Shown one piece after another: positions 21,028 to 38,295 of a DNA stretch of 64,000 nt (position 1 is its first letter; each line of letters opens with the position of its first letter). The DNA comes from Sulfuritalea sp. (GTDB taxonomy: Bacteria; Pseudomonadota; Gammaproteobacteria; Burkholderiales; Rhodocyclaceae), in assembly GCA_023700805.1 (NCBI GenBank), contig JAMPYF010000004.1, forward strand, positions 9,341 to 73,340, read 5' to 3'. The notes below the pieces were generated by a model that did not search any database, was not told where the DNA came from, and saw nothing but the letters and a program-made list of their open reading frames with translations. Both the position numbers and the translations under genes were made by a program.

Positions 21028-21205
21028 CGGCTTCAGTAAGGCACGGCGACTGCGGCGGCGAAACGGCGGTTCATGGCTTGCGGCCCTCGGCGAACAATGG
21101 CGCGCATTGTGAAGTGCGGCGGACCGCCGCCGCTGCGACAGAAAGCCGCATGCGGCCATCTGTCGCGCGGCATGTCGTCGCACATCGGCGGGTCCGGCCG
21201 GTTTG

Positions 21206-21219
21206 TTGAGCGCGATCAA
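21206..21219. promoter_or_regulatory. FNR/DNR-like box between divergent tonB and nirN
   Basis: TTGAG-CGCG-ATCAA. Confidence 0.7.
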
Positions 21220-21331
21220 GGACGCGCACCGGCATGCCGCTGCAGACTCGTGCTGCAGGCGCGCGCGGCCGATTCGAGCCGACGGTGCGCTAAGCTGCAG
21301 GCCGCGTTTCACTCGCAAATCCAAGGGGACG

Positions 21332-22987
21332 ATGCACAACATGAAGCCATCCTTCGCTGCCGCCGCGATCGCCGAACCGGCGACGCCCTGGAAAGTCCGC
21401 CTCCTGAAATGTGCCGCGAGTCTCGGCCTGCTGGCTTCCGCCGTGGTCGCAACGGGCGCCACTGCCGCCGATGCCCCGGCGCTCTACCAGCAGCATTGCG
21501 CGGTCTGCCACGGCGCCGGCCGGCTCGGCCTGACCGGGCCGGCGCTGCTGCCGGAAAGCCTCGCGCGGCTGAGGAAGCCCGAGGCGATCAAGACGATTGC
21601 CGCGGGCCGCGCCGCGACCCAGATGCTGGGTTTCGCCGACCGCCTGAGCAAGGAGGAGATCGCCGCGCTGGCCGACTACATCTATACCGCCGTGTCGCCA
21701 GCGCCAACTCTTGCAGAAGCCGACATCAAGGCCTCGCGCGTGGCCTATTTCGCGCCCGGCAGCCTGCCGGCCAAACCCGCCGCGGTGTTCCGGGGCGTGG
21801 ATATGATGAATCTGTTCATCGTGGTCGAGACCGGCGACCACCACGTCACGGTGCTCGACGGCGACAAGCTGGAGCCGATCCACCGCTTCCCCAGCCGCTA
21901 TGCGCTGCACGGCGGGCCGAAGTTCACGCCCGACGGACGCTATGTCTTCTTCGCTTCGCGCGACGGCTGGATCACCAAGTTCGACATCTGGAACCTCAAG
22001 GTGGTGGCGGAGATCCGCGCCGGCATCAACACGCGCAACGTCGCCGTCTCGGGCGACGGCAAGTACCTGGCGGTGGCCAACTACCTGCCGCATACGCTGG
22101 TGCTGCTCGATGCCGACCTGAACCTGCTCAAGGTGCATGAGGTGTGGGACAAGGAGCGCAAGGAAAGCTCACGCGTTTCCGCCGTGTATGACGCCGCGCC
22201 GCGCCAGAGCTTCGTCGCCGCGCTGAAGGACGTGCCCGAGGTCTGGGAGATCAGCTACAACCCGAAGGTCGACGACATCCCGGTCGGCATGGTGCATGAC
22301 TTCAAGTACAAGGAAGGCGCCTTCATTCCCGGCTTTCTCAATCCGCGCCGCACTTTCCTGTCCGAACCGCTCGACGACTTCTTCTTCACCCAGAACTATG
22401 CCGAGCTCATGGGCTCCTCGCGCTCCGCCGGCAAGGGCCAGGTGGTGCACCTCGACGTGCGCAAGAAGATCGCCGACCTCCAACTGCCCGGCATGCCGCA
22501 CCTGGGCTCGGGCATCACCTGGCAGTACAAGCCGCCGCAGGGCGCGCAGGATCGCACCGTGATGGCCACGCCCAACCTCAAGGAAGGCCTGGTCACCGTG
22601 ATCGACATGAAGGACTGGAGCACGGTCAAGACCATCCCGACCCTCGGCCCCGGCTTCTTCATGCGCAGCCACGAGAACACGCCCTACGCCTGGACCGATT
22701 CGATGATGTCGAAGGGCAAGGACACGCTGCAGGTGATCGACAAGCGCACGCTGGAGAAGGTCGCCGAAGTGAAGACCGATCCGGGCAAGACCCTGGCCCA
22801 CGTCGAATTCACGCGCGACGGCAAGTACGTGCTGGCCAGCCTGTGGGAGCGCAGGGCCGACGGCGGCGCGCTGATCGTGTTCGACGCCGCGACGTTCAGG
22901 GAAGTCAAGCGCATACCGATGGACAAGCCGGTCGGCAAGTACAACCTCTACAACAAGATCAACCGCTCGGAGGGCACCAGCCACTGA
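21332..22987 (+). CDS. nirN: NirN, c-type cytochrome with d1-binding beta-propeller (dihydro-heme d1 dehydrogenase)
   Basis: CAVCH heme c motif, ALHGGPKF, GMPHLGSG, C-terminal GKYNLYNKINRSEGTSH. Confidence 0.85.
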   Translation: MHNMKPSFAAAAIAEPATPWKVRLLKCAASLGLLASAVVATGATAADAPALYQQHCAVCHGAGRLGLTGPALLPESLARLRKPEAIKTIAAGRAATQMLGFADRLSKEEIAALADYIYTAVSPAPTLAEADIKASRVAYFAPGSLPAKPAAVFRGVDMMNLFIVVETGDHHVTVLDGDKLEPIHRFPSRYALHGGPKFTPDGRYVFFASRDGWITKFDIWNLKVVAEIRAGINTRNVAVSGDGKYLAVANYLPHTLVLLDADLNLLKVHEVWDKERKESSRVSAVYDAAPRQSFVAALKDVPEVWEISYNPKVDDIPVGMVHDFKYKEGAFIPGFLNPRRTFLSEPLDDFFFTQNYAELMGSSRSAGKGQVVHLDVRKKIADLQLPGMPHLGSGITWQYKPPQGAQDRTVMATPNLKEGLVTVIDMKDWSTVKTIPTLGPGFFMRSHENTPYAWTDSMMSKGKDTLQVIDKRTLEKVAEVKTDPGKTLAHVEFTRDGKYVLASLWERRADGGALIVFDAATFREVKRIPMDKPVGKYNLYNKINRSEGTSH

Positions 22988-23214: not shown

Positions 23215-23511
23215 ATGAGTCACAAACACCGAAATGTCCTGCAGGCGATTTTCCACGATCCGCTGAGCAGCAATATCCAGTGGCGCGAAGTCGAGTCGCT
23301 GCTGCACCACCTCGGCGCCACGGTCGAACCGGGCCATGGCGCGCGCTTCCGCGTCGTTTTGAACCGGCATGAGTTCACGGTGCACCATCCGCACCACGGC
23401 AACGAGTTCGGCAAGACCGACGTCAAGTACCTGCGCGAATGCCTCGCCGCCGCCGGCGTCACGCTGTCGAGCTACGACGAGCAGCACAAGTCGGCCAGCG
23501 GCGATGGATGA
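23215..23511 (+). CDS. HicA-family protein (no adjacent HicB)
   Basis: NIQWREVESLL...GARFRV...HHPH, a HicA-like pattern. Confidence 0.7.
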   Translation: MSHKHRNVLQAIFHDPLSSNIQWREVESLLHHLGATVEPGHGARFRVVLNRHEFTVHHPHHGNEFGKTDVKYLRECLAAAGVTLSSYDEQHKSASGDG

Positions 23512-23832: not shown

Positions 23833-24339
23833 ATGACTATCTCGATGTACGCAGCCAGCGCCCCGTGCTTCGTCAACATGCTGCGCAATCTCGACGCGAT
23901 CCTCGTCAGGGCACAGGATCATGCGGTCGCGAGGAAGATCGATCCGGCAGTCCTGCTCGGGGCGCGGCTGTTCCCGGACATGCTGCCCTTCGTCAAGCAG
24001 GTCCAGATCGCCACCGACCACGCCAAAGGGGCGGTCGCCCGGCTGGCGGGCGTGGCGGTGCCGAAGTTCGAGGACAGCGAACAAAGCTTCGAGGAACTTC
24101 GGGCGCGCCTCGCCCGGACGATCGAATTCGCCGAGTCCTTTTCCGCGGCGCAGATCGACGGTTCCGAAGAGCGGGAGATCGCCCTCAAGGTCGGCGGACA
24201 TGAAATGAGCTTCAAAGGCCTGCCCTACCTGGTCGGCTTCGCCTTGCCGAATTTCTATTTTCATCTGGTGACGGCGTACAACATACTGCGGCACAACGGC
24301 GTCGAAATCGGCAAGCGCGATTACATCGGCAGTCCCTAA
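23833..24339 (+). CDS. DUF1993 protein
   Basis: RLFPDMLP, LPNFYFHLVTAYNILRHNGVEIGKRDY. Confidence 0.9.
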   Translation: MTISMYAASAPCFVNMLRNLDAILVRAQDHAVARKIDPAVLLGARLFPDMLPFVKQVQIATDHAKGAVARLAGVAVPKFEDSEQSFEELRARLARTIEFAESFSAAQIDGSEEREIALKVGGHEMSFKGLPYLVGFALPNFYFHLVTAYNILRHNGVEIGKRDYIGSP

Positions 24340-24827: not shown

Positions 24828-25274
24828 TCAGGGCTTGCGGCTCCACTTGCCGTCGGCGTCGCGCAGCCACCAGCCCGACTTCCACTGCTGGTGCCAGCGC
24901 GCGCGCATCAGTTCCCATATTTCCGGCTCGGCGTCGCGCCGGCCATTGCTGTCGGCCAGGGCCTGGATCAGCGCCTTGCGTTCCAGGTTTTCCACGTCGA
25001 TCAGCTTTTCCGCGATCTGGCGCTTGGCCAGCGACATCTTGAGGCCGTCGCGCAGGTAGATGAGGCCGTCCGCGCCCAGGGCGACTTCGCCGGCTTCGTA
25101 AAAGCGCACCAGGCGCGAAGTGCGCTGCGCCAGGGAGTGCTTGACGACGATGACCGACGGCGTGCCGATATCCAGGTTGATCGCCGGTTTGGCTGCCGCC
25201 TTGGCGGGTTCGGCGGCCTGGGCGTGGAGCGCGGGAAGGGCGAGACAGGCGAGCAGCAGGGCGATTCGTTTCAT
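24828..25274 (-). CDS. YdbL/DUF1318-like exported protein
   Basis: Signal peptide; ENLERKAL, GWWLRDADGKW. Confidence 0.7.
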   Translation of the reverse strand: MKRIALLLACLALPALHAQAAEPAKAAAKPAINLDIGTPSVIVVKHSLAQRTSRLVRFYEAGEVALGADGLIYLRDGLKMSLAKRQIAEKLIDVENLERKALIQALADSNGRRDAEPEIWELMRARWHQQWKSGWWLRDADGKWSRKP

Positions 25275-25290: not shown

Positions 25291-25872
25291 TCATTTGCCG
25301 GCCAGCAGCAGCTTGAGGTCGGCGGCGATATTGGCCGGGGCTTCGCCATGGCGCAGCAGCAGGCGCAGCTTGCCCTGCGGATCGAAGGCGAAGCTGCCGG
25401 TGGAGTGATCGATGCTGTAGCTGCCCGGCGTCGAGCCGGGCTGCTTGGCATAGAACACCTTGAATTCCCTGGCCAGCGCGGCTATGCCATTTTCATCGGC
25501 GTAGAGGCCGAGGAAGCTCGGGTTGAAGGCCGGCACGTACTGCGCCAGCAGTTGCGGCGTGTCGCGCGCCGGGTCCACGGTGGCGAACAGCACCTGTACG
25601 CGTTTGGCATCTTCGCCGAGCAGCGCCATGGCGTCGCGCATGGTCGACAGCGTGGTGGGGCAGACGTCGGGGCACTGCGTGTAGCCGAAGAACAGCACCA
25701 CCGCCTTGCCCTTGAAATCGGCCAGGCGGCGCGGCTGGCCGTTGTGGTCGGTGAGGCTGAAATCCTTGCCCCAGTCGACCATCGACAGGTCGGTCGAGAC
25801 GAAACGCGGGGGTTCGGAACAGCCCGCCAGCAGCATGGCGCAGCAGAAAAAAATGGCCGACAGCAGTTTCAT
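25291..25872 (-). CDS. SCO1/SenC lipoprotein
   Basis: Lipobox LAGC, FFGYTQCPDVCPT, SIDH. Confidence 0.92.
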   Translation of the reverse strand: MKLLSAIFFCCAMLLAGCSEPPRFVSTDLSMVDWGKDFSLTDHNGQPRRLADFKGKAVVLFFGYTQCPDVCPTTLSTMRDAMALLGEDAKRVQVLFATVDPARDTPQLLAQYVPAFNPSFLGLYADENGIAALAREFKVFYAKQPGSTPGSYSIDHSTGSFAFDPQGKLRLLLRHGEAPANIAADLKLLLAGK

Positions 25873-25952
25873 GGAAGGGGCGATGCGAGGATGCAGGAAG
25901 GGCGTTCAGTGTACCATCCGGGTTGCCGTAATCCTTTCATAATTTTCGCGGG

Positions 25953-27314
25953 GTGATAGTGAATTCGCATAATGTCGCAATTTCCGGCGAGGCGTCAAAA
26001 GCCCTTGCCAGGGCATGGTTGTGGCTGGGGCTGATGGCGCTCATCGGTTCCGGTCTGCTGGCCATTTTGCTGGTGCTCTCGCGCACGCCGGGAATCCAGG
26101 ACGTGTTCCCGCTGAAGGACTTTTTCCGCGCCGCGCTGGTGGTTCATGTGGACCTCTCGGTGGCGATATGGTTCATGGCCTTCGCCGCGGTGATCTGGAG
26201 CGCGCTGGGCCGCGACGGCTTTGCCTGGCTGGGCTGGGCCGGCTTCGCGCTGGCCGCGGCGGGCACCGCGCTGATGACCGTCTCGCCCTTCCTGCCGGGC
26301 GCCGATCCGGTGCTCAACAACTACATTCCGGTGTTGCAGCAAAAGTACTTCTATGCCGCGCTGTGGATCTGCGCGGCGGGTTTCGGCCTGGCCGTGCTGC
26401 GCGCGCTGCTCACCACCTGGCCGAAGCCCTTCCTCGGCGCGCCGCTGCAAAGCGGCGCCTTCCTCGGCGCGGTGGCGGCCTTTCTCGCACTGGCGGCCTT
26501 CGTCTGGTCCTGGATCGTGGTGCCGCGGATCGAGGAAAAGATTTATTTCGAAGTGCTGTTCTGGGGCGGCGGCCATACCCTGCAGTTCCAGCATGCGCTG
26601 CTGATGGTGGTGGCGTGGCTGTGGATTGCCAGCCATCTCGGCCGGCCCGCGGAGCAGGGGGCGGGGGGCGGGCTGCCGGTTTCCGCACGAGCGCTCTCCG
26701 CCATGTTCTGGATCGCCGCGCTGCCGTTGCTGGTGGTGCCGGCGATCTACTTCACGATTCCGGCCGGCGAACTGCCGCACATGGAGCTCTTCGCCAAGCT
26801 GATGATCTGGGGCCACCCCTACATGGCGCCGCTGATCCTGGTCGGCTTGCTTGCCGTCTGGGCCACGCGCCGGATGCCGCCCCATGCGGCCAAGTCGGCC
26901 TTCATCGCCTCCTTCTCGCTGTTCGCCGTGGGCGGCGTGCTGGCCTACATGATCCAGGGTGTGAACGTGGTGATCCCGGCCCACTATCACGGCTCCACCG
27001 TGGGCGTGACGCTGGCCTTCATGGGCCTGGCCTACGTGTTGCTGCCGCAACTCGGCTTCGGCGAAGTCGAAGGGCGCATGGCGCGCTGGCAGCCCTATGT
27101 CTATGGCGGCGGCCAGCTGATCCACATCCTCGGCCTGGCCTGGTCGGGCGGCTACGGCGTGCAGCGCAAGGTGGCCGGCGCCGAGCAGGCGCTGACCACG
27201 CTGCCGCAGAAGATCGGCATGGGCATGATGGGCCTGGGCGGCCTGATCGCCGTGATCGGCGGCATCATGTTCGTGCTGGTCTGCCTCAAGCTGATGCTGC
27301 CGCGCAAGCGCTGA
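25953..27314 (+). CDS. divergent heme-copper oxidase subunit I-like membrane protein
   Basis: Helix II VVH, helix VI LFWGGGH, helix X PAHYHG, YGVQRK; no helix VII HH pair. Confidence 0.7.
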   Translation: MIVNSHNVAISGEASKALARAWLWLGLMALIGSGLLAILLVLSRTPGIQDVFPLKDFFRAALVVHVDLSVAIWFMAFAAVIWSALGRDGFAWLGWAGFALAAAGTALMTVSPFLPGADPVLNNYIPVLQQKYFYAALWICAAGFGLAVLRALLTTWPKPFLGAPLQSGAFLGAVAAFLALAAFVWSWIVVPRIEEKIYFEVLFWGGGHTLQFQHALLMVVAWLWIASHLGRPAEQGAGGGLPVSARALSAMFWIAALPLLVVPAIYFTIPAGELPHMELFAKLMIWGHPYMAPLILVGLLAVWATRRMPPHAAKSAFIASFSLFAVGGVLAYMIQGVNVVIPAHYHGSTVGVTLAFMGLAYVLLPQLGFGEVEGRMARWQPYVYGGGQLIHILGLAWSGGYGVQRKVAGAEQALTTLPQKIGMGMMGLGGLIAVIGGIMFVLVCLKLMLPRKR

Positions 27315-27368: not shown

Positions 27369-27929
27369 CTACTGCTTGCGGCCGTACCTGCCGGTCAGCG
27401 TCGCCTTGCCTATGGAATTGGCATTGACCATGAAGCCGGCCAGCGATGCCGTCGCTCCGGCGGGCAGTTCGAGCTTGTCCACCTTCAGCGCGTGCAGCGT
27501 GAAGTTGTAGCGATGCGGCTTGTCGCCGACCGGCGGGCAGGGGCCGCCCCAGCCGGGGCCGCCGAAGTCGGTGGCGATCTGCGCCGCGCCCTTGGGCAGC
27601 GCCGAACCGTCGGCCTTGCCCGCGCCCTTGGGCAGTTCCGCGACATCGGCCGGAATGTTGGTCACCACCCAGTGCCACCAGCCGGCGCCGCCGGTCGGCG
27701 CGTCGGGGTCATGCACCAGCAGCGCGAAGCTCTTGGTGCCCTTGGGCGCGCCCGACCATTTCAAGCCGGGCGAGATGTTCTTGCCGCTGCAGCCGAAGCC
27801 CTGGAACACCTGCTCCTCGGCGATCGGCGCCGCGGCCTTGATGTCGTCGCTGCCGAGCTTGAATTTTTCGGCCTGGGCGCCGCCGGCCAGGGCCAGCCCT
27901 GCCGCCAGCAAAAGACCGTTACGGATCAT
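27369..27929 (-). CDS. YbhB/YbcL (PEBP) family exported protein
   Basis: HDPDAPTG, WWHW, GPCPP, PHRYNF. Confidence 0.92.
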   Translation of the reverse strand: MIRNGLLLAAGLALAGGAQAEKFKLGSDDIKAAAPIAEEQVFQGFGCSGKNISPGLKWSGAPKGTKSFALLVHDPDAPTGGAGWWHWVVTNIPADVAELPKGAGKADGSALPKGAAQIATDFGGPGWGGPCPPVGDKPHRYNFTLHALKVDKLELPAGATASLAGFMVNANSIGKATLTGRYGRKQ

Positions 27930-28392: not shown

Positions 28393-30303
28393 TTATTTCG
28401 GCTGGAAGGCCATCGAGCGGGCCGAGATGGTGAAGGCGTCGGAGAAGCACATGCCTTCCTCGGCGCCCTGGTTTTTCAGAGTCGGGAAGATCGCCTCGAC
28501 CATTTTCACCGAGCCGCAGGCATAGATTTCGTGGCCCTTGAGGTCGGGGAAATCTTCCAGGATGGCTTCGTGCACCAGCCCGGTGCGACCGCTCCAGTGG
28601 TCGCCCGGCGCGGCATCGGAGATCACCGGGATGAAGTGGAAGTTGGCGTGCTCGCGCGCCCAGCCTTGCGGCAGTTCGGGCAGGTAGAGGTCGGCCAGCT
28701 GGCGCACGCCCCAGTAAAGATAGATCGGGCGCTTGAGGCCGCGCTGGAAGGCGTCCTCGACCATGCTCTTGACCGGGGCGAAGCCGGTGGCGCCGGCGAC
28801 GAAGACGATCGGGCGCTCGGATTCGCGCAGCGAGAAATCGCCCAGCGGACCTTCGAAGCTGACGGCATCGCCCACCTTCATCTGCTCGAAGACGTGGGTG
28901 GTGTAGCGGCCGCCGGGCATCAGGCGGATCTGCAGTTCGATCAGGTCGGACTGCTGCGGCGGATTGGCGAAGGAGAAGGCGCGGCGCTGGCCATCGTCGA
29001 GGATGATGTTGATGTACTGGCCGGCCTTGAAGGGAATATGCTGGCCTTCCGGCAACTTGAGCAGAACGCGCATCACGTCGTGGGTCAGCTTTTCCAGCTT
29101 CGCCACGTGGGCCGTGTATTGGCGGATGGCCTTAGGCGCGGCGGCCGCTTCATATTCGATCTCGACGTCGCCCAAGGCCGTCGCGCAGCACAGCAGCACC
29201 TTGCCGGCGGCGAGTTCCGCGGCCGACAGCGCGCTCGGCTGATACAGCCCGGGGTCGACATTGCCGGAGAGCACGGTGCATTTGCACTGCCCGCAGCCGC
29301 CGTTGCGGCATTCGTAGGGCAGGTTGATTTCCTGGCGCAGGCCGGCATCGAGCAGGGTTTCGTCGAAGCGGATGGCGACCGCCTTGTGGTCGGGGTGGAA
29401 GGTCACCGTCGCCTCGGCCTTGGCCGCGCCCATGCGCTTGGGCGGCAGCCAGGGGGCGAGGAACAGCAGGCCGGACAGGCCCAGGATGGCGAACCAGAGA
29501 TAGATCGGATCGACGACATAGACCAGGGCCAGCACCGGCATCTGGAACCAGTCGATGGCGATGTTGGTCGGCACCACCAGCATGTCGGCTTCGCCGCCCT
29601 GGCTGACCACCGGCTTGACCAGGGCCAGCACGACGAACATCGCCGTGAAGGCGATGGCGATCGCGCGCGGCGGATTGACATGGGCGCGCGGCACGCGCTG
29701 CACATGGACCCAGGCGATGACGCCGGCGATCAGCGGTGCGCCGAGGTGGATGAAGGCGAGCAGGGTGAACAGCCGGCTGGTGACGTTTTCCTGGTAGATG
29801 AAATTGCGGATCAGGGTGCCGTTGAACATCGGCAACGCATCGAACCATTCCGCGGTGGCGATGACGACGAACTGCGCCAGCTTGTCCCACACCAGCATGA
29901 AGCCGTTGAGGCCGGAGATGTAGACCAGCCAGATCAGCGCCACGCCGGTGGCCCAGGAGAACCAGCGGAAGCCGCGGTAACGGTCGTAGGCGAAGTGCCG
30001 CAGCATGTGCAGCAGCATGGTCAGGATCATGCCGTCGGTGGCATAGCGATGCACGCTGCGCATGATGCCGCCGGCCCACCACTGCTCGTGGGTGATGCGC
30101 TCGACCGATTCGTAGGCATCGTGCACGGCGGTGTCGGCGAAGACGTAGAGATAGATGCCGGTGCCGATCAGCAGCCAGAACTGCCAGAAGCTGATGGTGC
30201 CCAGGTGGTAGAAGGGATTGAGCTTCTCGCCGAAGGCCGCGTTGAACAGGTTCTCCGCACGCATGAAGAACCAGCGCACGAGTTTTTGGAGGTGGGTCAG
30301 CAT
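28393..30303 (-). CDS. cytochrome b + 2Fe-2S ferredoxin + FAD/NAD(P) reductase fusion
   Basis: RSVHRY...LLH and FIH...WVH heme ligands; CRNGGCGQC...C; RAFS, AGATGFAP, YACGS. Confidence 0.88.
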   Translation of the reverse strand: MLTHLQKLVRWFFMRAENLFNAAFGEKLNPFYHLGTISFWQFWLLIGTGIYLYVFADTAVHDAYESVERITHEQWWAGGIMRSVHRYATDGMILTMLLHMLRHFAYDRYRGFRWFSWATGVALIWLVYISGLNGFMLVWDKLAQFVVIATAEWFDALPMFNGTLIRNFIYQENVTSRLFTLLAFIHLGAPLIAGVIAWVHVQRVPRAHVNPPRAIAIAFTAMFVVLALVKPVVSQGGEADMLVVPTNIAIDWFQMPVLALVYVVDPIYLWFAILGLSGLLFLAPWLPPKRMGAAKAEATVTFHPDHKAVAIRFDETLLDAGLRQEINLPYECRNGGCGQCKCTVLSGNVDPGLYQPSALSAAELAAGKVLLCCATALGDVEIEYEAAAAPKAIRQYTAHVAKLEKLTHDVMRVLLKLPEGQHIPFKAGQYINIILDDGQRRAFSFANPPQQSDLIELQIRLMPGGRYTTHVFEQMKVGDAVSFEGPLGDFSLRESERPIVFVAGATGFAPVKSMVEDAFQRGLKRPIYLYWGVRQLADLYLPELPQGWAREHANFHFIPVISDAAPGDHWSGRTGLVHEAILEDFPDLKGHEIYACGSVKMVEAIFPTLKNQGAEEGMCFSDAFTISARSMAFQPK

Positions 30304-30334: not shown

Positions 30335-30853
30335 TCAGAGTTTGTTCGCGGCGCTTTGCTGGAAGAACAGGCCGCCCTTGTCCGGATTGAAGTCGACCAC
30401 CAGCACCTGCGCCGGCTTCAGCGTGACTCGTGCTTCCTTGGTGAAGTTGAACCCCGGATTGACCAGGTTGTCGTTCATTTTGACGGCCAGCTGGTAGGTT
30501 CCGGCCTTGATCTCGAAACGCTTATAGACGGTGGATACGCCGTCGCGCGAAAGCCCCGTCGGATGCATCACGGTTTCGAACATCGGCTTGCCGTCGAGTT
30601 CCAGCACCAGCTTGATGTCGGAACGCCCGCGCGGACAGTCCAGCGGCGCGCGCATGTTGGGCGGCAGCTTGGAAAGCTCCTCGGCGCTGCGCTTGCGGCA
30701 ATCGCGCCCGCCGAGATGGCTCATCGACAGCTTGATCAGCGCCACGTCGTCGGGAATCTGCTTGTAGGTCGGGTTGGTCGAGAAGTAGCCGATGAAGGCG
30801 GCGAACGCGCCGTAGAGGACGATCTGACCGGCGATGGCGGCGGGTTTAGCCAT
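30335..30853 (-). CDS. membrane-anchored periplasmic protein of unknown function (2 Cys)
   Basis: N-terminal TM; HLGGRDC...MRAPLDCPRGRS; host-like codon usage. Confidence 0.75.
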   Translation of the reverse strand: MAKPAAIAGQIVLYGAFAAFIGYFSTNPTYKQIPDDVALIKLSMSHLGGRDCRKRSAEELSKLPPNMRAPLDCPRGRSDIKLVLELDGKPMFETVMHPTGLSRDGVSTVYKRFEIKAGTYQLAVKMNDNLVNPGFNFTKEARVTLKPAQVLVVDFNPDKGGLFFQQSAANKL

Positions 30854-30967
30854 GATGGGTTCCTTCGCAGGGCCGTCCCGAAAAGGAACAGCCAGGTGTA
30901 TGGAGCGGGCATTGCCCGCGAACAATCGTCACCCCCGTCCTTGGGAAGGGGGTTGGGGGGAAGGTGG

Positions 30968-32542
30968 TCATCTTGTTCTCCTGGAGAAGGGGGGTGGCCG
31001 GGTGTTTTGCACCCATTGCATTTCGAGTCGGTTTCTGAATTCAGCGACGGCGGCGGCGAGCAGCCCGCCGTCGCCGCGCGAGGCATGGACCACCTGCAGG
31101 CGCTGCAGCGGCACCAGGCCGCGCAGATGAGGTTCGCGGCTGCGGGCGAGGCGTTCCCGCGTCCATTGCATGCCGAGGCGGAACTCGCAGCCGCCTTCGC
31201 GGCAGCCGGTGACGACGATGCCATCGGCGCCGCTGCGCAGTGCGTATTCGACGAAGGAGGGCGGCAGCATGCCGGTGCACAGCAGGCTGATGGCGGCGGT
31301 GTCGGCGGCGTCGAGGCCGCGCACATCGGCGCCCTTGTCGCAGCCGAAGACGACCAGCCGGGCCTGGCCCGGCGTCGGCGTTCCCCATGACGCCAGGCGC
31401 GCTTCGAGTTGCCGGCGCAGTGCGTCGACCGGCTGTTGCGGCATGTCGATGCCGGTCACGAGTTTTTCCTGGCTGCGGAAGGGCGTCGAGGAGGGGCAGG
31501 CGCCGGCGCAGATGCCGCAGCTGGCGCACAGGTCGGCGTCGACCACGGCGATCTTGTGGCCCGGTTTGTCGGGATGGATCGCCATGGTCACGGCCTCGTA
31601 GGGACAATCGGCGTGACAGCGGGCGCAGCCGTTGCAGTTCGCCGCATCGACCACGGCGACCGGCGCAGCAGCAGGATGGGGCAGGAAGGGCAGGGCGAAG
31701 AGCAGCAGGGTGGCGCCGAAGACCAGCCCCCACACCGCCGCCGGCGAACTGAGGTCGGTCAGCGGATGGATGAACAGCAAGAACCAGTCGAGCCGCAGTC
31801 CGTTCGGCACCAGGGCCAGGTCGGCCGGTGCGTCGGAAAGCGCCGGCTTGAGCAGGGCCAGCGCCAGGAAGCTGATCATGGTGGCCAGCATCAGGCGCCG
31901 CGAAGGCAGGTAATCGACCCGGCTGATGCGATTGACATGGGCCCAGAGGCCGAGGAGCAGCATCAGCGGGACGCCGATGTGGATGAACACCAGCACCGTG
32001 AAGAAGCGGTCGTTGATCGAATCCGGCGCGAGGAAGTTGCGCGCCGCGGGCTCGCTGAAAATCGGCAGCCAGTCGAGCAGTTCCGTGGTGGCGACGGCGG
32101 AGAACTGCGCCAGGCGGTCCCAGACGATCCAGTAGCCGCCGATGCCCGAGATGTAGGCAAACCAGATCAGCGGCACGCCGGTGATCCACGAATACAGGCG
32201 GAAGCCGTAGTAGCGGCCATGCGCCCACTCGCGCAGCAGATGCAGCATCATGACCAGCACGAAGGCATCGGCGGCATAGCGGTGCAGGCTGCGCAATATG
32301 CCCCCCAGATACCACTGCTCGCGCGACAGATAGTCGATCGAGCTGTACACGCCGTCGATGCTGGTGTCCAGCACGGTGTAGAGGTAGAGCCCGCTGGCGA
32401 CCAGGATCCAGAGGAAATACAGGCCGAGCGCGCCAAGGTGGCGCAGGGGATTGTCGGCGCCGCCGAAGTATCCATCGAAGAAATTCTCGATGCTGTCGAA
32501 GAGGGTTTGCGCGTTGCCGCGCAACACTGCGTGCAAGCTCAC
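30968..32542 (-). CDS. cytochrome b + 2x[4Fe-4S] + MvhD/FlpD-like domain fusion
   Basis: RSLHRY...LH, FIH...AH; CNGCARCHADCP, CASCGICAGACP; VFGC, LCTG, DGIVVTGCREGGCEF; start GTG 32542 or TTG 32599. Confidence 0.85.
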   Translation of the reverse strand: MSLHAVLRGNAQTLFDSIENFFDGYFGGADNPLRHLGALGLYFLWILVASGLYLYTVLDTSIDGVYSSIDYLSREQWYLGGILRSLHRYAADAFVLVMMLHLLREWAHGRYYGFRLYSWITGVPLIWFAYISGIGGYWIVWDRLAQFSAVATTELLDWLPIFSEPAARNFLAPDSINDRFFTVLVFIHIGVPLMLLLGLWAHVNRISRVDYLPSRRLMLATMISFLALALLKPALSDAPADLALVPNGLRLDWFLLFIHPLTDLSSPAAVWGLVFGATLLLFALPFLPHPAAAPVAVVDAANCNGCARCHADCPYEAVTMAIHPDKPGHKIAVVDADLCASCGICAGACPSSTPFRSQEKLVTGIDMPQQPVDALRRQLEARLASWGTPTPGQARLVVFGCDKGADVRGLDAADTAAISLLCTGMLPPSFVEYALRSGADGIVVTGCREGGCEFRLGMQWTRERLARSREPHLRGLVPLQRLQVVHASRGDGGLLAAAVAEFRNRLEMQWVQNTRPPPFSRRTR

Positions 32543-32626
32543 GTTGGGAGATTCCGTCAAGCCGGCACTGGAAGACGGCCGCCGACTATTAGCGGTCAAT
32601 GATATTTAAGTCGGAAGATTTCCGAC

Positions 32627-32640
32627 TTGACTGCAATCAA
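32627..32640. promoter_or_regulatory. FNR/DNR-like box upstream of the cytochrome b fusion genes
   Basis: TTGAC-TGCA-ATCAA. Confidence 0.8.
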
Positions 32641-32645
32641 CCGGA

Positions 32646-33611
32646 TCAAATCCTGTTGTCGCGTTTGCGCAGAAAGAAACTCCAGGCCAGCCAGCCCATG
32701 AAGAAAGTGAAGCTGATGAAGCCGCCGATCTCGAAGTACAGCGCGTAGTTGGTCCGGTATCTGCCGCTGACGGGGTCATACACCGAGCACAGGATCCGGA
32801 TGCGGTCGGCGATTTCGGCCAGGGTGCTGGTTTGCTGCGGTATCGGCGCGCCGGTGATCATCGCCTTGAGCGGCTCCGCAAGGTCCTCGGCGGTGAATTT
32901 CTCGCCATAGATCTGGCGGTAGATCCTGCCCTCGGCATCGACCAGGGTGACCTGGTTCACATGGTCGAATCCGGCGGTGGTGGCGACATAGCTGAAGCCG
33001 AAGTTCTGCGTCAGTTCGTCGACGATGGCCGGCGCCGGACTGAGGAAATCCCAGTTGGGCAGGTGGATGCCGTACTGGGTGGCAAAGGTCTTCATCGCCT
33101 GCGGCGAGTCGAAAGGCTGGTTGAAGCCGATGCTGACGATGTTGAAGCGATCCGCCCCGAGCATGCCGACGGTGTTCTCGACGGCCTTTTGCAGGTTCTT
33201 GGTGGTGGTGGGGCAGACCTGGAAGCAGGCGGTATAGACGAAATTCACCAGCAGCGGCTTGCCGCGGTACTTGGCCAGCGCCGTCGGCCGTTGCTGGCGG
33301 TCGAGCAGCACGTGATCGCCGACCGGCTGGCCGATCACGGCCTGCGAGCGCTTCAGCGCCGCCTGGGCGTCGAGCGTGGTGAGCGCGAGGCCGGTGCGCG
33401 CGCCTTGCGGCACCGCGGTGAGGCCCGGCGTGGTCGCCTTCGCCGTGTCACCATCCGCTACGGCGAGGAGAGCGTTTTTCGCTCGACCGCCTTGTAGCGC
33501 AGGGGCTTCATCAGCGCCAACTCCTGCGGCAGCGGCAAGCACGACTGCCGCGAGCGCGGCATGGAGCGAGAAACGGATCACGGGGATTGCCTGGCTAGAA
33601 GCGGGCGTCAA
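32646..33611 (-). CDS. SCO-family protein with C-terminal TM extension
   Basis: FVYTACFQVCP, GFDH, C-terminal TM helix. Confidence 0.85.
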   Translation of the reverse strand: MTPASSQAIPVIRFSLHAALAAVVLAAAAGVGADEAPALQGGRAKNALLAVADGDTAKATTPGLTAVPQGARTGLALTTLDAQAALKRSQAVIGQPVGDHVLLDRQQRPTALAKYRGKPLLVNFVYTACFQVCPTTTKNLQKAVENTVGMLGADRFNIVSIGFNQPFDSPQAMKTFATQYGIHLPNWDFLSPAPAIVDELTQNFGFSYVATTAGFDHVNQVTLVDAEGRIYRQIYGEKFTAEDLAEPLKAMITGAPIPQQTSTLAEIADRIRILCSVYDPVSGRYRTNYALYFEIGGFISFTFFMGWLAWSFFLRKRDNRI

Positions 33612-34485
33612 TGATGGCCGCGGTTAGCACCAGCGTCAACTGCGCCAGGGAGGCGTGGAAGCAACTCATCGCCGTGGCGCGGTTGGTGTTCTGCACCAGG
33701 CGCCAGGCCTTCAGGATGAACAGGAAGCCGCCGACGGCGGCGCCGGCGAAGTAGATCGCGCCGAGGCCGAAGGCCAGCGGCAGCAGGGAGGCCGCCACCA
33801 GGGCCAGGGTGCTGGCGAATATGGTCTTGGCCGCACGCTGGTCGCCGACCACCACGGGCAGCATGGGCACGCCGGCGGCCGCGTAGTCGTCGCGGTAGGC
33901 GATCGCCAGGCTCCAGAAGTGCGGCGGCGTCCACAGGAAGAGCACGAAGGCCAGCGCCAGCGGTACCGCGCCGACCTGCGGGTCGGCCGCCGTGGCGCCG
34001 GCCAGCACGGCCCAGCTGCCGGCCAGTCCGCCGAAGACGATGTTGAGCCAGGTGCGGCGCTTGAGCCAGACCGTATACACGATGGCGTAGAAGAAGGCGC
34101 CGAGAAAGGTGAACAGCGCCGCCCAGGCATTCAGTGCGAGCCAGGCTGCGCCGACCGAGATCGCCATGAGGCCGAAAATGACTGCCAGCCAGACCGGGCC
34201 GTGCTTGATTTCGCCGGTGGCGAAAGGCCGGTTCCTGGTGCGCGACATCAGCGGATCGATGTCGTGTTCGTAATACTGATTGAAGGCGCCGGCACTGGCC
34301 GAGGAAACCAGCACGGCCAGGGTCAGCGTGATCAGCTGGACCAGGCTCAGGCTGGGGCCGCCGCTTACCGACAGGCCCGCCAGTGCGGTGAAGGTGATGA
34401 CGACGCCGATGCGCAGCTTGAACAGTCCCGCGATGGCGCGGAAGGAGAGTCCGGAGGATCTGTTGGTGGGCAGCGTCGATTCCAT
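33595..34485 (-). CDS. ctaB: protoheme IX farnesyltransferase (heme o synthase)
   Basis: DIDPLMSRTRNRP, YTVWLKRRT, FLWTPPHFWSLA. Confidence 0.95.
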   Translation of the reverse strand: MESTLPTNRSSGLSFRAIAGLFKLRIGVVITFTALAGLSVSGGPSLSLVQLITLTLAVLVSSASAGAFNQYYEHDIDPLMSRTRNRPFATGEIKHGPVWLAVIFGLMAISVGAAWLALNAWAALFTFLGAFFYAIVYTVWLKRRTWLNIVFGGLAGSWAVLAGATAADPQVGAVPLALAFVLFLWTPPHFWSLAIAYRDDYAAAGVPMLPVVVGDQRAAKTIFASTLALVAASLLPLAFGLGAIYFAGAAVGGFLFILKAWRLVQNTNRATAMSCFHASLAQLTLVLTAAIIDARF

Positions 34486-34626: not shown

Positions 34627-36324
34627 TCAGCTGAGGCCCCAGACTTCGGACAGATACTTCCAATTCACGAAGTAGTAGAGCACGAAGCAGACCAGCAGCG
34701 TCATGGCCAGCACCACCGTGCCCGGCACGCCGATGTGCTCTTCGCTGCCGGTGTGGGATGCGGAAGACGCGGCGGACTGGTCGGGGATCGGCGTCGGCTT
34801 GTCGGACAGGGTGCCGCCGTCGAGCTTCTTGCCGAACAGCAGGGACCACACCACGAGGAAGATCCACAGGCCGCCGCCGATGACCGCGATCACGCCGAAG
34901 ATGCCGGTGAGACCCATCATCAGGTAGGCGGCGCCCGGCCATTCATACTGGAACGGTGCTCCGGAGAAGGCCATGTCCCAGTGCCGACGGGAGACGCCGA
35001 GGGTACCGGCGCCCATCATCACCAGGCCCAGCACCGACATGCTGATGCCGTAGAGGTAGGGCTGGATCTGGCACAGCTTGGGGAACATCATTTCACGCCT
35101 GAACAAGGTCGGCACCAGCAGGTAGGTGATCGACATGAAGGCCAGCGTGGTACCGACGACGACCGTGGTATGGAAGTGGCCCGGCACGTAGAAGGTGTTG
35201 TGCATCAGCATGTTGATCTGCTCGGTGCCCAGCACGACGCCGGAGATGCCGCCGAGGAAGCCGAAGCCGACCAGCGAGATGAACATGCCCGAGAACACCG
35301 GGTTGCCCCAGGGTGCCTTGCGCAGCCACTCGAACAGGCCGTTGGTGAAGCCCTTCTTGCGCTGTGCCGCTTCGATCGCGCCCGGAACCGTGAAGCCGTG
35401 GATCATCGAGGCGAGAACCGCGAAGTACATGAAGTAGGAGGTGTTCAGCACCTTCCACTCCGCGCTCATGCCCGGGTCGGACAGCAGGTGGTGCGCGCTG
35501 GCCAGCTGCAGGAACAGGATGTAGAGCAGGAAGGCGAAGCGCGACACTTTCTCGGACAGCGGTTTGGCGCCGAAGATCACGGCGGCCGTCAGATACCAGA
35601 TCGAGACGTGTGCGGCGACGTTGACCTGCTGCGAGGAGTGACCCAGCGCCCACCAGACCATGCGGTACAGCTGGGCGTCGATTTCCTTGATCCAGCCCAT
35701 CGACCAGGCGAAGGTCGGGATCAGGATCGCGGCGCCGGAAGCGATGGTGAATACCGCGATGATCGCCGCGGTCATGGCGCCGAAGGTGACCAGCGGCAGC
35801 GAACCGGTGTAGGTCTTGTCCTTCTTGGCCACTACCAGGGTGCCGAAGAACACCCCGGTTCCCAGCAGGGCGCCGACTGCCACCAGGATGATGCCCAGGT
35901 AGAAATGCGGCGCGGCCTGCATCGGCACGTAGGAGGTGAACATCACGGAGGACGAGCCCTGGAAGATGGCGACGTTGGTCATGATGCCGCCGACGACCAT
36001 CAGCCAGAATCCGAGCCAGGCCACTTTTGGAGTCGCAATCCGGCAGCGCAACAGGGTCGATGAGGCGAAGTAGAGCACCGCCATTTCGAAGAAGAGTATC
36101 CACAGGATCAGCATGTCGATGCCGTGGGCCGTCAGGATCAGGTAGAACTGGTCCGCCGGCAGCAGCTTGATCGCCGGCCAGCGGGTGAGGATCACCAAGA
36201 GGGCGGTGATGCCGCCCACCAGCAGCCAGAGCACGCCGGCTACGGCGTTCCAGCGCATCAGCTTGTCGGCATCGAGGTCGAACTGCAGCCCGGTGCGCGG
36301 ACAGGTACGGTAAGTAGTTGCCAT
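34627..36324 (-). CDS. B-family heme-copper subunit I, eNOR-type nitric oxide reductase
   Basis: All six His present (TAHG, GHSSQQ, AHH, GHFH); cross-linked Tyr position of HPxVY is Gln. Confidence 0.8.
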   Translation of the reverse strand: MATTYRTCPRTGLQFDLDADKLMRWNAVAGVLWLLVGGITALLVILTRWPAIKLLPADQFYLILTAHGIDMLILWILFFEMAVLYFASSTLLRCRIATPKVAWLGFWLMVVGGIMTNVAIFQGSSSVMFTSYVPMQAAPHFYLGIILVAVGALLGTGVFFGTLVVAKKDKTYTGSLPLVTFGAMTAAIIAVFTIASGAAILIPTFAWSMGWIKEIDAQLYRMVWWALGHSSQQVNVAAHVSIWYLTAAVIFGAKPLSEKVSRFAFLLYILFLQLASAHHLLSDPGMSAEWKVLNTSYFMYFAVLASMIHGFTVPGAIEAAQRKKGFTNGLFEWLRKAPWGNPVFSGMFISLVGFGFLGGISGVVLGTEQINMLMHNTFYVPGHFHTTVVVGTTLAFMSITYLLVPTLFRREMMFPKLCQIQPYLYGISMSVLGLVMMGAGTLGVSRRHWDMAFSGAPFQYEWPGAAYLMMGLTGIFGVIAVIGGGLWIFLVVWSLLFGKKLDGGTLSDKPTPIPDQSAASSASHTGSEEHIGVPGTVVLAMTLLVCFVLYYFVNWKYLSEVWGLS

Positions 36325-36336
36325 CTGTTTATCCCC

Positions 36337-36876
36337 TTATTTCACGTAAATACGGCCAAGCATCGTGTGGTGCCCGATGCCGCAGTATTCGTTGCAGACG
36401 ATGGCGTACGTGCCGGCCTTGGTCGGCGTCATCTTGACCACATGCTCATAGCCGGGAATGACCTGGATATTGATGTTGGTCGGCTGCAGCGAGAAGCCGT
36501 GGTTGTAGTCGACCGCCGACAGATGGATCTTGTAGGTCTTGCCGGCTTCCAGTTCCAGGATCGGATACCAGGCCCAGAGACGGGCCAGCAGGAAGGCCTC
36601 GCCATTGGCGTTCGGCTTGACCACCGGGATGTTCTGTTCCGTCTCGGTACGAATGGTGTTTTCCTTGACGAAGGCTTCGGTCTTCGCGGTAAACATTTCG
36701 GTCGTGGTCTTGTACACCTCGTTCGAAAGGTTCTGCTTACCGTTGATGTGCCAATAGACCATCATCACGAACATGATCATGGCCCAGACGAAGGCGATGC
36801 CGATCCAGGCCCATTCCTGGCCCGATATCGATTGTTTCCACCACAGCCGCTCTGAAGGCGGCAGGATTGCGCTCAT
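36337..36876 (-). CDS. subunit II with CuA centre
   Basis: Single TM; HGF and CNEYCGIGHHTM. Confidence 0.92.
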   Translation of the reverse strand: MSAILPPSERLWWKQSISGQEWAWIGIAFVWAMIMFVMMVYWHINGKQNLSNEVYKTTTEMFTAKTEAFVKENTIRTETEQNIPVVKPNANGEAFLLARLWAWYPILELEAGKTYKIHLSAVDYNHGFSLQPTNINIQVIPGYEHVVKMTPTKAGTYAIVCNEYCGIGHHTMLGRIYVK

Positions 36877-37154: not shown

Positions 37155-37168
37155 TTGATTCAGGACAA
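37155..37168. promoter_or_regulatory. FNR/DNR-like box upstream of the eNOR operon
   Basis: On the minus strand TTGTC-CTGA-ATCAA, about 100 nt before the first start codon. Confidence 0.65.
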
Positions 37169-37300: not shown

Positions 37301-38251
37301 TCAGACGGTTTCCTGGGCTTCCAGCCAGTAGGCCAGACCCTGGGCGTTGAGCTCCAGGTCGAGATGCCAGATGTCGAGTATCTCCGCATCGCTGAGGCGG
37401 CAGCCGTGGGCATGGGCCTCCTTGAGCAGCAGCGCGGTCAGGCCGTCGCGGATGCGCGCCGTCTTGTCTTCGTCCCCACTGGCAGCAAGGGTAATCGCGA
37501 CGTACTGGTCGAGCAGCTCAAGTACCTTGCGGCCCAGTTTGGCGGGCGGCGCCAGGCGGCTGAAGTGAGTCAGATAGACCGCCTCGGGATTGAAGGACAG
37601 CATGCGCAGGATGGAAGCGCGCATTTCGTCCGGGTCGAACTGGATCGGCGTCGAGGAGGGGAAGATCAGCGGCCGGCCATCGACATCGAGCTCGCGGTAG
37701 GAAATGCCGAAGGTGTCGCCGGTGAAAATCCCGCTCGATTGCCGGTCGACGATCGCGATGTGGTGGCGGGCGTGGCCCGGCGCGTCGATGCAGAGCAGTT
37801 CGCGCGAACCGAGCCTGAGCACGGTGTTGTCGTGGGCCTCGATGATGCGCTCGGCCGCGATCGGGATCAGCTTGCCGTACATGCGCCGCGCCCGCTCCCG
37901 GCCGTAGACGCCCTCGACCCCGGCCATCAGCTTGGTCGGCTCGATCATGTGCCGCGCGCCGCGCGGATGCACCACCAGCCTGGCCTTGGGGAAGGCATCC
38001 ATCATGACGCCGGCGCCGCCGGCATGGTCGAGGTGGATGTGGGTCAGGATCACGTAATCGACGTTTTCCGGCCCCAGGCCGCGCGCCGCGAGCGCCGCCA
38101 GCGCCTGCGGCATGACTTCGAAGTTGGCGGTATCGACGAAGGCGGCGCGGCCTTCGCTCTCGATCAGGTGGATCGCGGCCAAGAGCGGCCGCACGTAGCC
38201 GGCATCGAAGGCGTAGATGCCGTTGTGGTAGTCGATCAGCGGAGTTTGCAT
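37301..38251 (-). CDS. MBL-fold metallo-hydrolase
   Basis: THIHLDHAGG, PGHARHH, FTGD. Confidence 0.9.
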   Translation of the reverse strand: MQTPLIDYHNGIYAFDAGYVRPLLAAIHLIESEGRAAFVDTANFEVMPQALAALAARGLGPENVDYVILTHIHLDHAGGAGVMMDAFPKARLVVHPRGARHMIEPTKLMAGVEGVYGRERARRMYGKLIPIAAERIIEAHDNTVLRLGSRELLCIDAPGHARHHIAIVDRQSSGIFTGDTFGISYRELDVDGRPLIFPSSTPIQFDPDEMRASILRMLSFNPEAVYLTHFSRLAPPAKLGRKVLELLDQYVAITLAASGDEDKTARIRDGLTALLLKEAHAHGCRLSDAEILDIWHLDLELNAQGLAYWLEAQETV

Positions 38252-38295
38252 GGAGCGTTGCACCGAAACATGGAGTCAGTCTTTGCGAAAATCCT

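Follow-up and report, generated by a model that had tools for sequence, protein, structure and literature searches.

eNOR is a haem-copper nitric oxide (NO) reductase derived from the B family of the haem-copper oxidoreductases (HCOs). According to the available passages of two papers, the enzyme from Rhodothermus marinus has been characterised (Murali et al. 2024, PMC11214002), and the hallmark of eNOR is a Gln in place of the cross-link Tyr (PMC8756737). In gNOR one active-site His is replaced by Asp, and the same passages of Murali et al. make it the first HCO family in which an active-site His is replaced (PMC11214002). The eNOR operon of Ferrigenium consists, in the preprint passages that describe it, of genes for eNOR II, eNOR I, haem O synthase, sco1, an "eNOR scaffold protein" to which no function is assigned, and two cytochrome b fusions (10.64898/2026.01.22.701106). 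Here we describe a gene that lies beside such a cluster in a 64,000-nucleotide stretch of the genome of a Sulfuritalea sp. (contig JAMPYF010000004.1, called C35 below; the whole stretch is called the window). The gene, hereafter the target, occupies positions 25953-27314 of the plus strand and encodes a 453-amino-acid paralogue of HCO subunit I. The target and its family keep the predicted ligands of two haems and lack a complete metal site, and within genomes that carry ctaA, the family and the assembly factor Surf1 are nearly mutually exclusive. We lean toward the view that the target is a noncatalytic two-haem accessory protein for the supply of haem A to, or its insertion into, eNOR and aa3 oxidases, and that it stands in for Surf1.

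The target is a real gene and encodes a conserved 12-helix homologue of HCO subunit I. Its start codon is GTG, with a further in-frame GTG six bases on at 25959, and its G+C content by codon position (0.89 at position 3 and 0.46 at position 2) is like that of real genes nearby. At E ≤ 1e-3, 6,109 of 8,000 scored candidates were homologues, and an exhaustive search of representatives clustered at 50% identity gave 1,421 matching clusters at the same threshold, or 565 if E ≤ 1e-30 is required. With thousands of homologues, the target is not a chance open reading frame (ORF); it is an ordinary member of a large family not characterised before. Transcript data were sparse: 24 listed RNA runs share a small fraction of the words of the gene, and short contigs from four RNA libraries cover parts of it; these contigs are mostly 85 to 95% alike, come from relatives, and may include DNA.

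The preliminary description of this locus had proposed that the protein be compared with COX1, NnrS, and CtaA. Only the first comparison gave a match. Pfam COX1 spans residues 19 to 419 at 30.3 bits, under its gathering cutoff of 34.8, and it was the sole Pfam match at E ≤ 0.01; CtaA, NnrS, and Surf1 were not among the matches. The NCBIfam scan gave no match, nor did a search of PDB sequences at E ≤ 10. The fold was clearer. The AlphaFold model, built on 123 representatives, has 12 long helices, a pLDDT of 92.2, and a pTM of 0.93, and Foldseek matched it solely to chains of HCO subunit I, the top match being subunit I of the Thermus ba3 oxidase (TMq 0.73 to 0.76). Together with the lost ligands described next, the model agrees with the earlier proposal that an oxidase fold with an incomplete binuclear site has been put to another use.

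BLASTP aligned the target with the eNOR subunit I of the window over its full length (25% identity, E = 1e-14), so that in the target the His of helix II, the "GH" of helix VI, and the "HxH" of helix X fall on the eNOR ligands. The same alignment pairs the helix VII "AHH" of eNOR with "AIY" in the target, that is, His-His with Ile-Tyr. We then counted conservation in 133 aligned representatives of the family. The haem-ligand residues H65, H344, and H346 were kept in 132, 131, and 130 of them, respectively, and the metal-site residue H208 of helix VI was invariant. R405 (128/133) and K406 (129/133) were also kept; we take this pair to be at the position where the Arg pair of HCOs binds the haem propionates. 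The low-spin haem would thus have its bis-His ligands from helix II and the second helix X His, and the proximal His of the high-spin haem is present as well. Of the three His of the CuB/FeB site, H208 alone is retained. In the column of the second helix VII His, the family has Tyr in 66 sequences, Phe in 18, His and Leu in 9 each, and Gln in 6; no residue between positions 245 and 268 of helix VII reaches 85% conservation, and the alignment contains no conserved His, Asp, Glu, or Cys in that helix that could serve as a substitute ligand. The preliminary description had listed the helix II, VI, and X His as kept and the helix VII His-His as absent, which is what the larger alignment bears out. 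Alignment and conservation together indicate that the target keeps the ligands of both haem sites and one of the three metal-site His, and that, as far as the sequences tell, the loss of the helix VII pair is a property of the whole family.

Across the family about 40 positions are near-invariant, and the target has every one of these residues except T281, which is Ala. The signature that we use for the family comprises H65, N123-Y124-P126, E200, W204, H208, Q211, M284, H344-Y345-H346, and R405-K406. If the target were a decaying and functionless relic of an oxidase, the loss of catalytic ligands and the sub-cutoff Pfam score would be expected. However, the frame is intact, homologues number in the thousands, the near-invariant positions are many, the predicted fold is confident, synteny is conserved, and contigs of relatives from RNA libraries lie on the gene in four runs, although the last is a weak point. 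The conservation data effectively refute this reading, and we give it almost no credence.

The family is also distinct from the known HCO families. The genome of the target has eight COX1-type matches. A profile of the family scored 534 bits with the target (over its full length), 389 bits with a second paralogue, and 144 bits with eNOR subunit I, and it did not match the other five HCO-type ORFs (A family, cbb3 type, qNOR type, and others) at E ≤ 10. Across the 401 genomes described below, the profile matched eNOR-length frames at about 1e-49. Because eNOR subunit I was matched and the other HCO types were not, the profile scores place the family as a paralogue lineage of eNOR subunit I, its closest HCO relative. 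The two are alike in the 12-helix fold, in the haem ligands of helices II and X, in a helix VI His with Gln at +3, and in that the target is encoded in or beside eNOR clusters. They differ in that the target has neither the helix VII His-His nor a CuA subunit II, is about 110 residues shorter, and has Phe at +4 of the helix VI motif (GHTLQF, versus GHSSQQ in the eNOR of the window), where the Gln of eNOR replaces the cross-link Tyr. Since gNOR is the first family with one His replaced and the target family lacks two, the family falls outside all HCO families in the available passages of Murali et al. (PMC11214002). The target thus belongs to the HCO superfamily by fold and descent. Having neither the three-His site nor a subunit II, it should not be filed as an oxidase, as an eNOR, or as "cbb3 subunit I." The family is a new, probably noncatalytic variant of HCO subunit I.

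The distribution of the family was determined in a fixed sample of 401 genomes of one phylum, the Pseudomonadota, and the same set was searched for eNOR, ctaA, and Surf1. At a profile cutoff of E ≤ 1e-20 the family was found in 95 genomes; one of these (G190, 69% complete) was removed because its sole match was of the eNOR type (2.4e-49), leaving 94. eNOR subunit I (E ≤ 1e-60) was found in 50 genomes, and 49 of these have the family, the exception again being G190. This agrees with the linkage to eNOR proposed in the preliminary description. There were also 45 family genomes that had no eNOR. The ESM Atlas suggests that the Verrucomicrobiota and Acidobacteriota have members as well.

The expectation that the family would be anticorrelated with ctaA was reversed. 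Of the 270 genomes with ctaA (PF02628), 91 are among the 94 with the family and 179 are among the 307 others. The three family genomes without ctaA are G102, G194, and G218 (93, 75, and 93% complete). In at least 40 family genomes, ctaA is within 1 kb of the family gene; among the matches listed, the two genes are in tandem in 24 (gaps of 39 to 102 bp) and divergent in 16. The count is a lower bound, as 144 further ctaA matches lay outside the listing. The genome of the target itself has two ctaA matches, on contigs C9 and C17. That the target replaces ctaA is therefore ruled out.

Surf1 (PF02104) was found in 184 of the 401 genomes. The genomes were cross-classified as follows.

ctaA-positive genomes (270): family only, 85; Surf1 only, 177; both, 6; neither, 2
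ctaA-negative genomes (131): family only, 3; Surf1 only, 1; both, 0; neither, 127

Neither was found in G060 and G178 (the latter 74% complete), both of them ctaA-positive. One genome with ctaA and Surf1 and without the family (G383) is flagged as unpublished; excluding it, the counts of 177 and 270 become 176 and 269. Within the ctaA-positive genomes, then, the family and Surf1 are nearly mutually exclusive, and this distribution is new. When five near-complete family-positive genomes were searched again for Surf1 at E ≤ 10, nothing scored above 15 bits.

Two assembly factors are natural comparisons. Surf1/Shy1 resembles the family in being almost confined to ctaA-positive genomes and in being encoded in or near clusters for oxidases and haem A synthesis. 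It differs in fold and size, having two membrane helices and a periplasmic domain, and the two have no sequence similarity. Judged by distribution, the family may work like Surf1; it is not a member of that family. Surf1 binds haem a, as stated in passages of a review (PMC9145763). CtaM (DUF420), an assembly factor of aa3/caa3 oxidases, is likewise a membrane protein, and the occurrence of its genes also follows that of oxidase and haem A genes, but it belongs to a different family of four to five helices, and CtaM and the target family co-occur and do not replace each other.

The target and its neighbours in the window are listed here.

21203-22987, plus strand: nirS, cytochrome cd1 nitrite reductase; upstream of the target and on the same strand, with the true start downstream of the mechanical ORF start
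24828-25274, minus strand: small exported DUF1318 protein (PF07027, 43.6 bits), downstream of the SCO gene
25291-25872, minus strand: lipoprotein of the SCO1/SenC type (motif CPDVC); 80 bp separate its gene from the target, and the two are transcribed divergently
25953-27314, plus strand: the target, HCO subunit I paralogue of 453 amino acids (open ORF, family profile, conserved residues, and fold model)
27369-27929, minus strand: exported protein of the PEBP/YbhB family, between the target and the eNOR cluster
28393-30303, minus strand: fusion of cytochrome b, 2Fe-2S ferredoxin, and FAD/NAD(P)H reductase; last gene of the eNOR cluster, convergent with the target
30335-30925, minus strand: orf196 (196 amino acids), which fits no known family; a Pfam scan at E ≤ 1 was empty
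30968-32599, minus strand: fusion of cytochrome b, 2x[4Fe-4S], and an FlpD/MvhD-like domain (Pfam/NCBIfam)
32646-33611, minus strand: second SCO1/SenC gene, within the eNOR cluster
33595-34485, minus strand: ctaB, haem O synthase of the UbiA family (182.9 bits)
34627-36324, minus strand: eNOR-type HCO subunit I (GHSSQQ, AHH, and GHFH motifs)
36337-36876, minus strand: eNOR subunit II (cupredoxin/CuA type)

On the minus strand the order of transcription is eNOR II, eNOR I, ctaB, SCO, the cytochrome b/2x[4Fe-4S]/FlpD fusion, orf196, and the cytochrome b/ferredoxin/reductase fusion, and this cluster, ctaB included, lies 1.1 to 9.6 kb downstream of the target. No COX2-like or other subunit II gene adjoins the target, whose neighbours are the SCO, DUF1318, and PEBP genes, and no ctaA was found on contig C35. 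The earlier statements that the target has no subunit II of its own, that it diverges from a SCO gene, and that ctaB is present and ctaA absent locally were therefore accurate. The PEBP gene occurs in just 5 of 80 related loci and so probably does not belong to the system.

We searched the window for FNR/DNR-type boxes (TTGAT-N4-ATCAA). At up to two mismatches there were 24 matches versus 10.5 expected. One at 21206-21219, before nirS, has one mismatch, as does one at 32627-32640 between the SCO and cytochrome b/FeS genes of the eNOR cluster; a third, at 37155-37168 upstream of eNOR II, has two. In the promoter region of the target (25873-25952) there was none at up to two mismatches. Two further ORFs of the window are mentioned for completeness. 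One (37301-38263, minus) immediately precedes eNOR II, shares its strand, and encodes a protein of the metallo-beta-lactamase fold with a borderline match to the ODP di-iron domain (PF19583, 27.7 bits versus a cutoff of 27.2), and its product is possibly an NO- or O2-binding di-iron protein. Between nirS and a DUF1993 gene (23833-24339), a 98-amino-acid ORF (23215-23511, plus) has a HicA-toxin match of 30.5 bits and is possibly a toxin-antitoxin remnant.

The position of the target between nirS and eNOR raises the question of whether the protein could be a catalytic haem-only enzyme or gas handler, for which NO or O2 would reach the high-spin haem from its open distal face; such a protein might bind or detoxify NO, or supply or scavenge O2 for haem A synthase. 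H208, W204, and Q211, beside the high-spin haem site, are invariant or near-invariant, and haem A synthesis needs O2, yet eNOR is made anoxically in the account given by passages of the Ferrigenium preprint (10.64898/2026.01.22.701106). However, two of the three metal ligands are lost with no conserved substitute, and there is no subunit II or other subunit for electron input. Nearly half of the family genomes have no eNOR at all, and many members of the family are within aerobic A-family cox clusters. Also, the promoter region of the target lacks an FNR-type box, unlike nirS and the eNOR cluster. We therefore consider a gas-handling role improbable.

We then examined the neighbours of family genes elsewhere, using 80 loci from the Rhodocyclales, 20 diverse loci (13 handle-families of Pseudomonadota), and 80 metagenome loci, many of them short. 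Because an eNOR subunit I query in tblastn cross-matches family genes at 23 to 28% identity, eNOR was counted with profiles. In the Rhodocyclales the arrangement of the window recurs: SCO is within 300 bp of the family gene in 47 of 80 loci, the cytochrome b/ferredoxin/reductase gene is within 5 kb in 43, nirS is within 5 kb in 32, and the DUF1318 gene is present in 49. Among the metagenome loci, SCO is within 300 bp in 19, ctaB and orf196 in 6 each, and ctaA in 4.

In the diverse loci, matches checked with Pfam place ctaA within 300 bp of the family gene in 10 of 20 and ctaB in 4; at least one of the two is that close in 13. DUF420/CtaM adjoins the family gene in two loci (L137 and L138), in both together with ctaB, and a set of ResB-like, CcsA-like, and tetratricopeptide repeat (TPR) genes adjoins it in two others. 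Three loci (L130, L133, and L141) have no ctaA, ctaB, DUF420, or ResB/CcsA/TPR genes nearby, and in L126 and L127 the family gene adjoins an ABC transporter, and genes for an oxidase, SCO, or ctaA are found at distances of 0.2 to 6 kb. No COX2-type gene adjoins the family gene in any of the 20; subunit II genes lie farther off, with an A-family COX2 at about 2.2 kb in L126 and eNOR II at 2.7 to 6.6 kb in L127 and L134-L136. The neighbours (ctaA, ctaB, DUF420/CtaM, and SCO) are consistent with an accessory function connected with haem, and so is the fusion to haem O synthase described below.

The same loci bear on the possibility that the target is a membrane sensor of NO or O2, as has been proposed for NnrS-like proteins. 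A haem protein encoded in a denitrification neighbourhood could be such a sensor. But the target has no output domain and no Pfam match to NnrS, its relatives adjoin biogenesis genes and not regulators in 13 of the 20 diverse loci, and the domains fused to the family (CtaB, cytochrome b, and TPR) include none for signalling. A sensor is thus very unlikely.

In five loci (L136, L195, L196, L208, and L209), the eNOR genes and the family gene form operons on one strand, in the order eNOR II, eNOR I, (ctaB), SCO, cytochrome b/FeS, orf196, and family gene, with the family gene last or next to last. In L136 and L209, ctaA follows the family gene. These operons have the same make-up as that in the available passages of the Ferrigenium preprint (10.64898/2026.01.22.701106), so the "eNOR scaffold protein" may well be the target family; orf196 is the other candidate, and the main text of the preprint gives neither a sequence nor a gene number. 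orf196 lies directly upstream of the family gene in all five operons, with gaps of 0 to 42 bp.

Two small complete genomes have a different arrangement. There (L134:9097-12873 and L135:6563-10359) the family gene, a ctaA that overlaps it by 4 bp, and an MFS transporter gene form one operon that is divergent from a cytochrome b561 gene; cNMP-binding and PAS regulators are near. A complex predicted for the L134 family protein and its overlapping ctaA product scored 0.00, which weighs neither way.

Several members of the family are fused to other domains. Of the 150 best representative clusters, seven exceed 600 amino acids, and the fused forms range from 598 to 761 amino acids; a search for fused forms of at least 794 amino acids found none, which is weak evidence. 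P0231 (748 amino acids) joins the family domain to UbiA/CtaB, P0126 (761 amino acids) carries an N-terminal cytochrome b before the family domain, and five representative clusters and L141 have a C-terminal TPR of the CcmH/CycH kind. In an alignment of P0231, P0126, and two of the TPR forms, the four His are all present, as are most of the other signature residues. Fusion to haem O synthase points to a task in the haem O/A pathway, and fusion to cytochrome b points to an involvement of redox chemistry.

The latter would be expected if the target kept its two haems permanently and served as an electron carrier in the cytochrome b/FeS/reductase module of the eNOR cluster, perhaps feeding haem A synthase, which needs electrons, or eNOR; haem would then not be its cargo. 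In addition to P0126, the cytochrome b561 genes beside the family-ctaA pair in L134 and L135 suit this role, as does the one-strand order of orf196, family gene, cytochrome b/ferredoxin/reductase, and ctaA in L209. So does the strict conservation of the bis-His haem ligands, of Y345 at the haem-bridging position, and of R405-K406. Eukaryotic Cox15, the haem A synthase, depends on ferredoxin and ferredoxin reductase, which is a parallel, and a fixed electron carrier avoids the difficulty of haems that are buried in the HCO fold. On the other hand, seven diverse loci (L123-L125, L129, L131, L132, and L139) have ctaA alone or A-family cox clusters and no cytochrome b module. An electron-transfer role alone does not explain the exclusion of Surf1, and no quinol or cytochrome c site is identifiable. 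We regard this explanation as the main rival to the one that we favour, though clearly less probable.

The genome of the target also has a second, deep-branching paralogue of 462 amino acids on contig C45 (C45:89452-90840; L092:9453-10841; Pfam COX1, 43.2 bits). Genes for a ResB-like protein (366 amino acids) and a CcsA-like protein (288 amino acids) are upstream of it, with a 632-amino-acid multihaem cytochrome c further upstream, and a TPR protein and ccmF-G-H-I are downstream. The set of NHL protein, multihaem cytochrome, ResB-like protein, CcsA-like protein, and paralogue recurs in L140 and L142, the TPR gene in L142 only; elsewhere in the family the TPR forms part of the same protein as the family domain. 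This arrangement suggests that the branch of the second paralogue works in c-type cytochrome maturation. We built a FastTree phylogeny of 108 rows, rooted with three eNOR sequences, from all the diverse loci, one in five of the Rhodocyclales loci, and those metagenome ORFs that reach 400 amino acids. The members with the CcsA/TPR set form a separate deep clade (support, 99), the ctaA, ctaB, and eNOR-operon contexts are scattered over the main clade, and the target is in a derived clade that carries the divergent SCO gene.

These data bring us back to an accessory role in haem A supply, the explanation that we favour. The target, as an eNOR subunit I paralogue, would bind two haems, one bis-His and one His-ligated, and has no second-metal site, subunit II, or known electron donor of its own. 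It would work in the biogenesis of haem-A-containing haem-copper enzymes, its client being the neighbouring eNOR in this organism and also aa3-type oxidase in other bacteria. The step most likely served is the handling of haem O or A between the synthases CtaB and CtaA and the catalytic subunit I. Surf1 is thought to hold haem a transiently, to modulate haem A synthase, and to assist haem insertion, and the family protein could likewise hold haem a, modulate CtaA, or assist insertion. Binding of haem O or A, contact with CtaA or CtaB, and a Surf1-like role are what we infer from these patterns. The preliminary description had proposed a haem-modifying or haem-inserting factor for eNOR; the eNOR link, the haem-related neighbours, and the CtaB fusion fit that proposal, and the expected anticorrelation with ctaA and the idea that such a factor takes the place of ctaA had to be given up.

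Several observations weigh against this explanation. In the window the target is monocistronic, sharing no operon with ctaA or ctaB. The deep subfamily that includes the second paralogue has as its companions ResB-like, CcsA-like, and TPR genes and one for a multihaem cytochrome c, instead of haem A genes. Both haems would be buried in the HCO fold, which makes the release of haem mechanistically awkward, and P0126, the cytochrome b561 genes of L134 and L135, and the cytochrome b/FeS and cytochrome b/ferredoxin/reductase genes of the eNOR cluster suit electron transfer equally well or better. Six genomes, among them that of the target, have both Surf1 and the family (G000, the target's genome, and G004, G028, G108, G148, and G227). 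Surf1 matches of 12 to 15 bits, at chance level, turned up in two of the five genomes searched again, and a very divergent Surf1 is possible there. Finally, the family-positive genomes belong to 19 handle-families, 16 without Surf1 and 3 with it. Since the genomes are related, the independent events may be few, and a Fisher test of the cross-classification overstates the pattern; the complementarity of the family and Surf1 may reflect only a few evolutionary events.

For the target's own genome, the co-occurrence has a counterpart. Its single Surf1 gene is about 2.4 kb from an A-family COX1 gene on contig C30, and the target is beside the eNOR cluster. In Paracoccus there are separate Surf1 paralogues for separate oxidases, according to passages of a review (PMC9145763), and the placement of Surf1 and the target near different enzymes parallels this specificity.

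A more speculative variant, which we rate slightly below even the gas-handling role, is that the family is the missing partner that lets haem A synthase run with little or no O2. The two haems of the family protein, together with the attached cytochrome b/ferredoxin/reductase modules, would then form an oxidant or electron relay for CtaA, or a local source or sink of O2. If this is true, anaerobic denitrifiers could still make haem A for eNOR, and the oxidase scaffold would have been turned into a redox enzyme of cofactor maturation and not a passive chaperone. The fusion encoded at 28393-30303 recalls the ferredoxin/ferredoxin-reductase pair that eukaryotic Cox15 needs. By this analogy it might supply the electrons for haem A synthesis, instead of acting as the quinol:NAD+ oxidoreductase that is proposed for the cytochrome b/ferredoxin/reductase fusion in passages of the Ferrigenium preprint (10.64898/2026.01.22.701106).

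Our literature search found the family undescribed apart from the one phrase in the Ferrigenium preprint, and it found no report of a linkage to ctaA or of a relation to Surf1. The available passages of that preprint do not state either for the scaffold protein (10.64898/2026.01.22.701106), and no such protein is described in the available passages of Murali et al. (both versions), Degli Esposti et al. 2021, or Hederstedt 2022.

With thousands of members, and present in 94 of 401 genomes, the family is a concrete candidate for the insertion of haem a in bacteria that lack Surf1. Its complementarity with Surf1 turns the question of how oxidases and NO reductases are made into simple experiments. 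Because eNOR-type reductases produce the greenhouse gas N2O, a candidate for the delivery of their haem A is of wider interest. If the role that we favour is true, the family would be a clear case of a respiratory catalytic subunit that has become a noncatalytic maturation factor.

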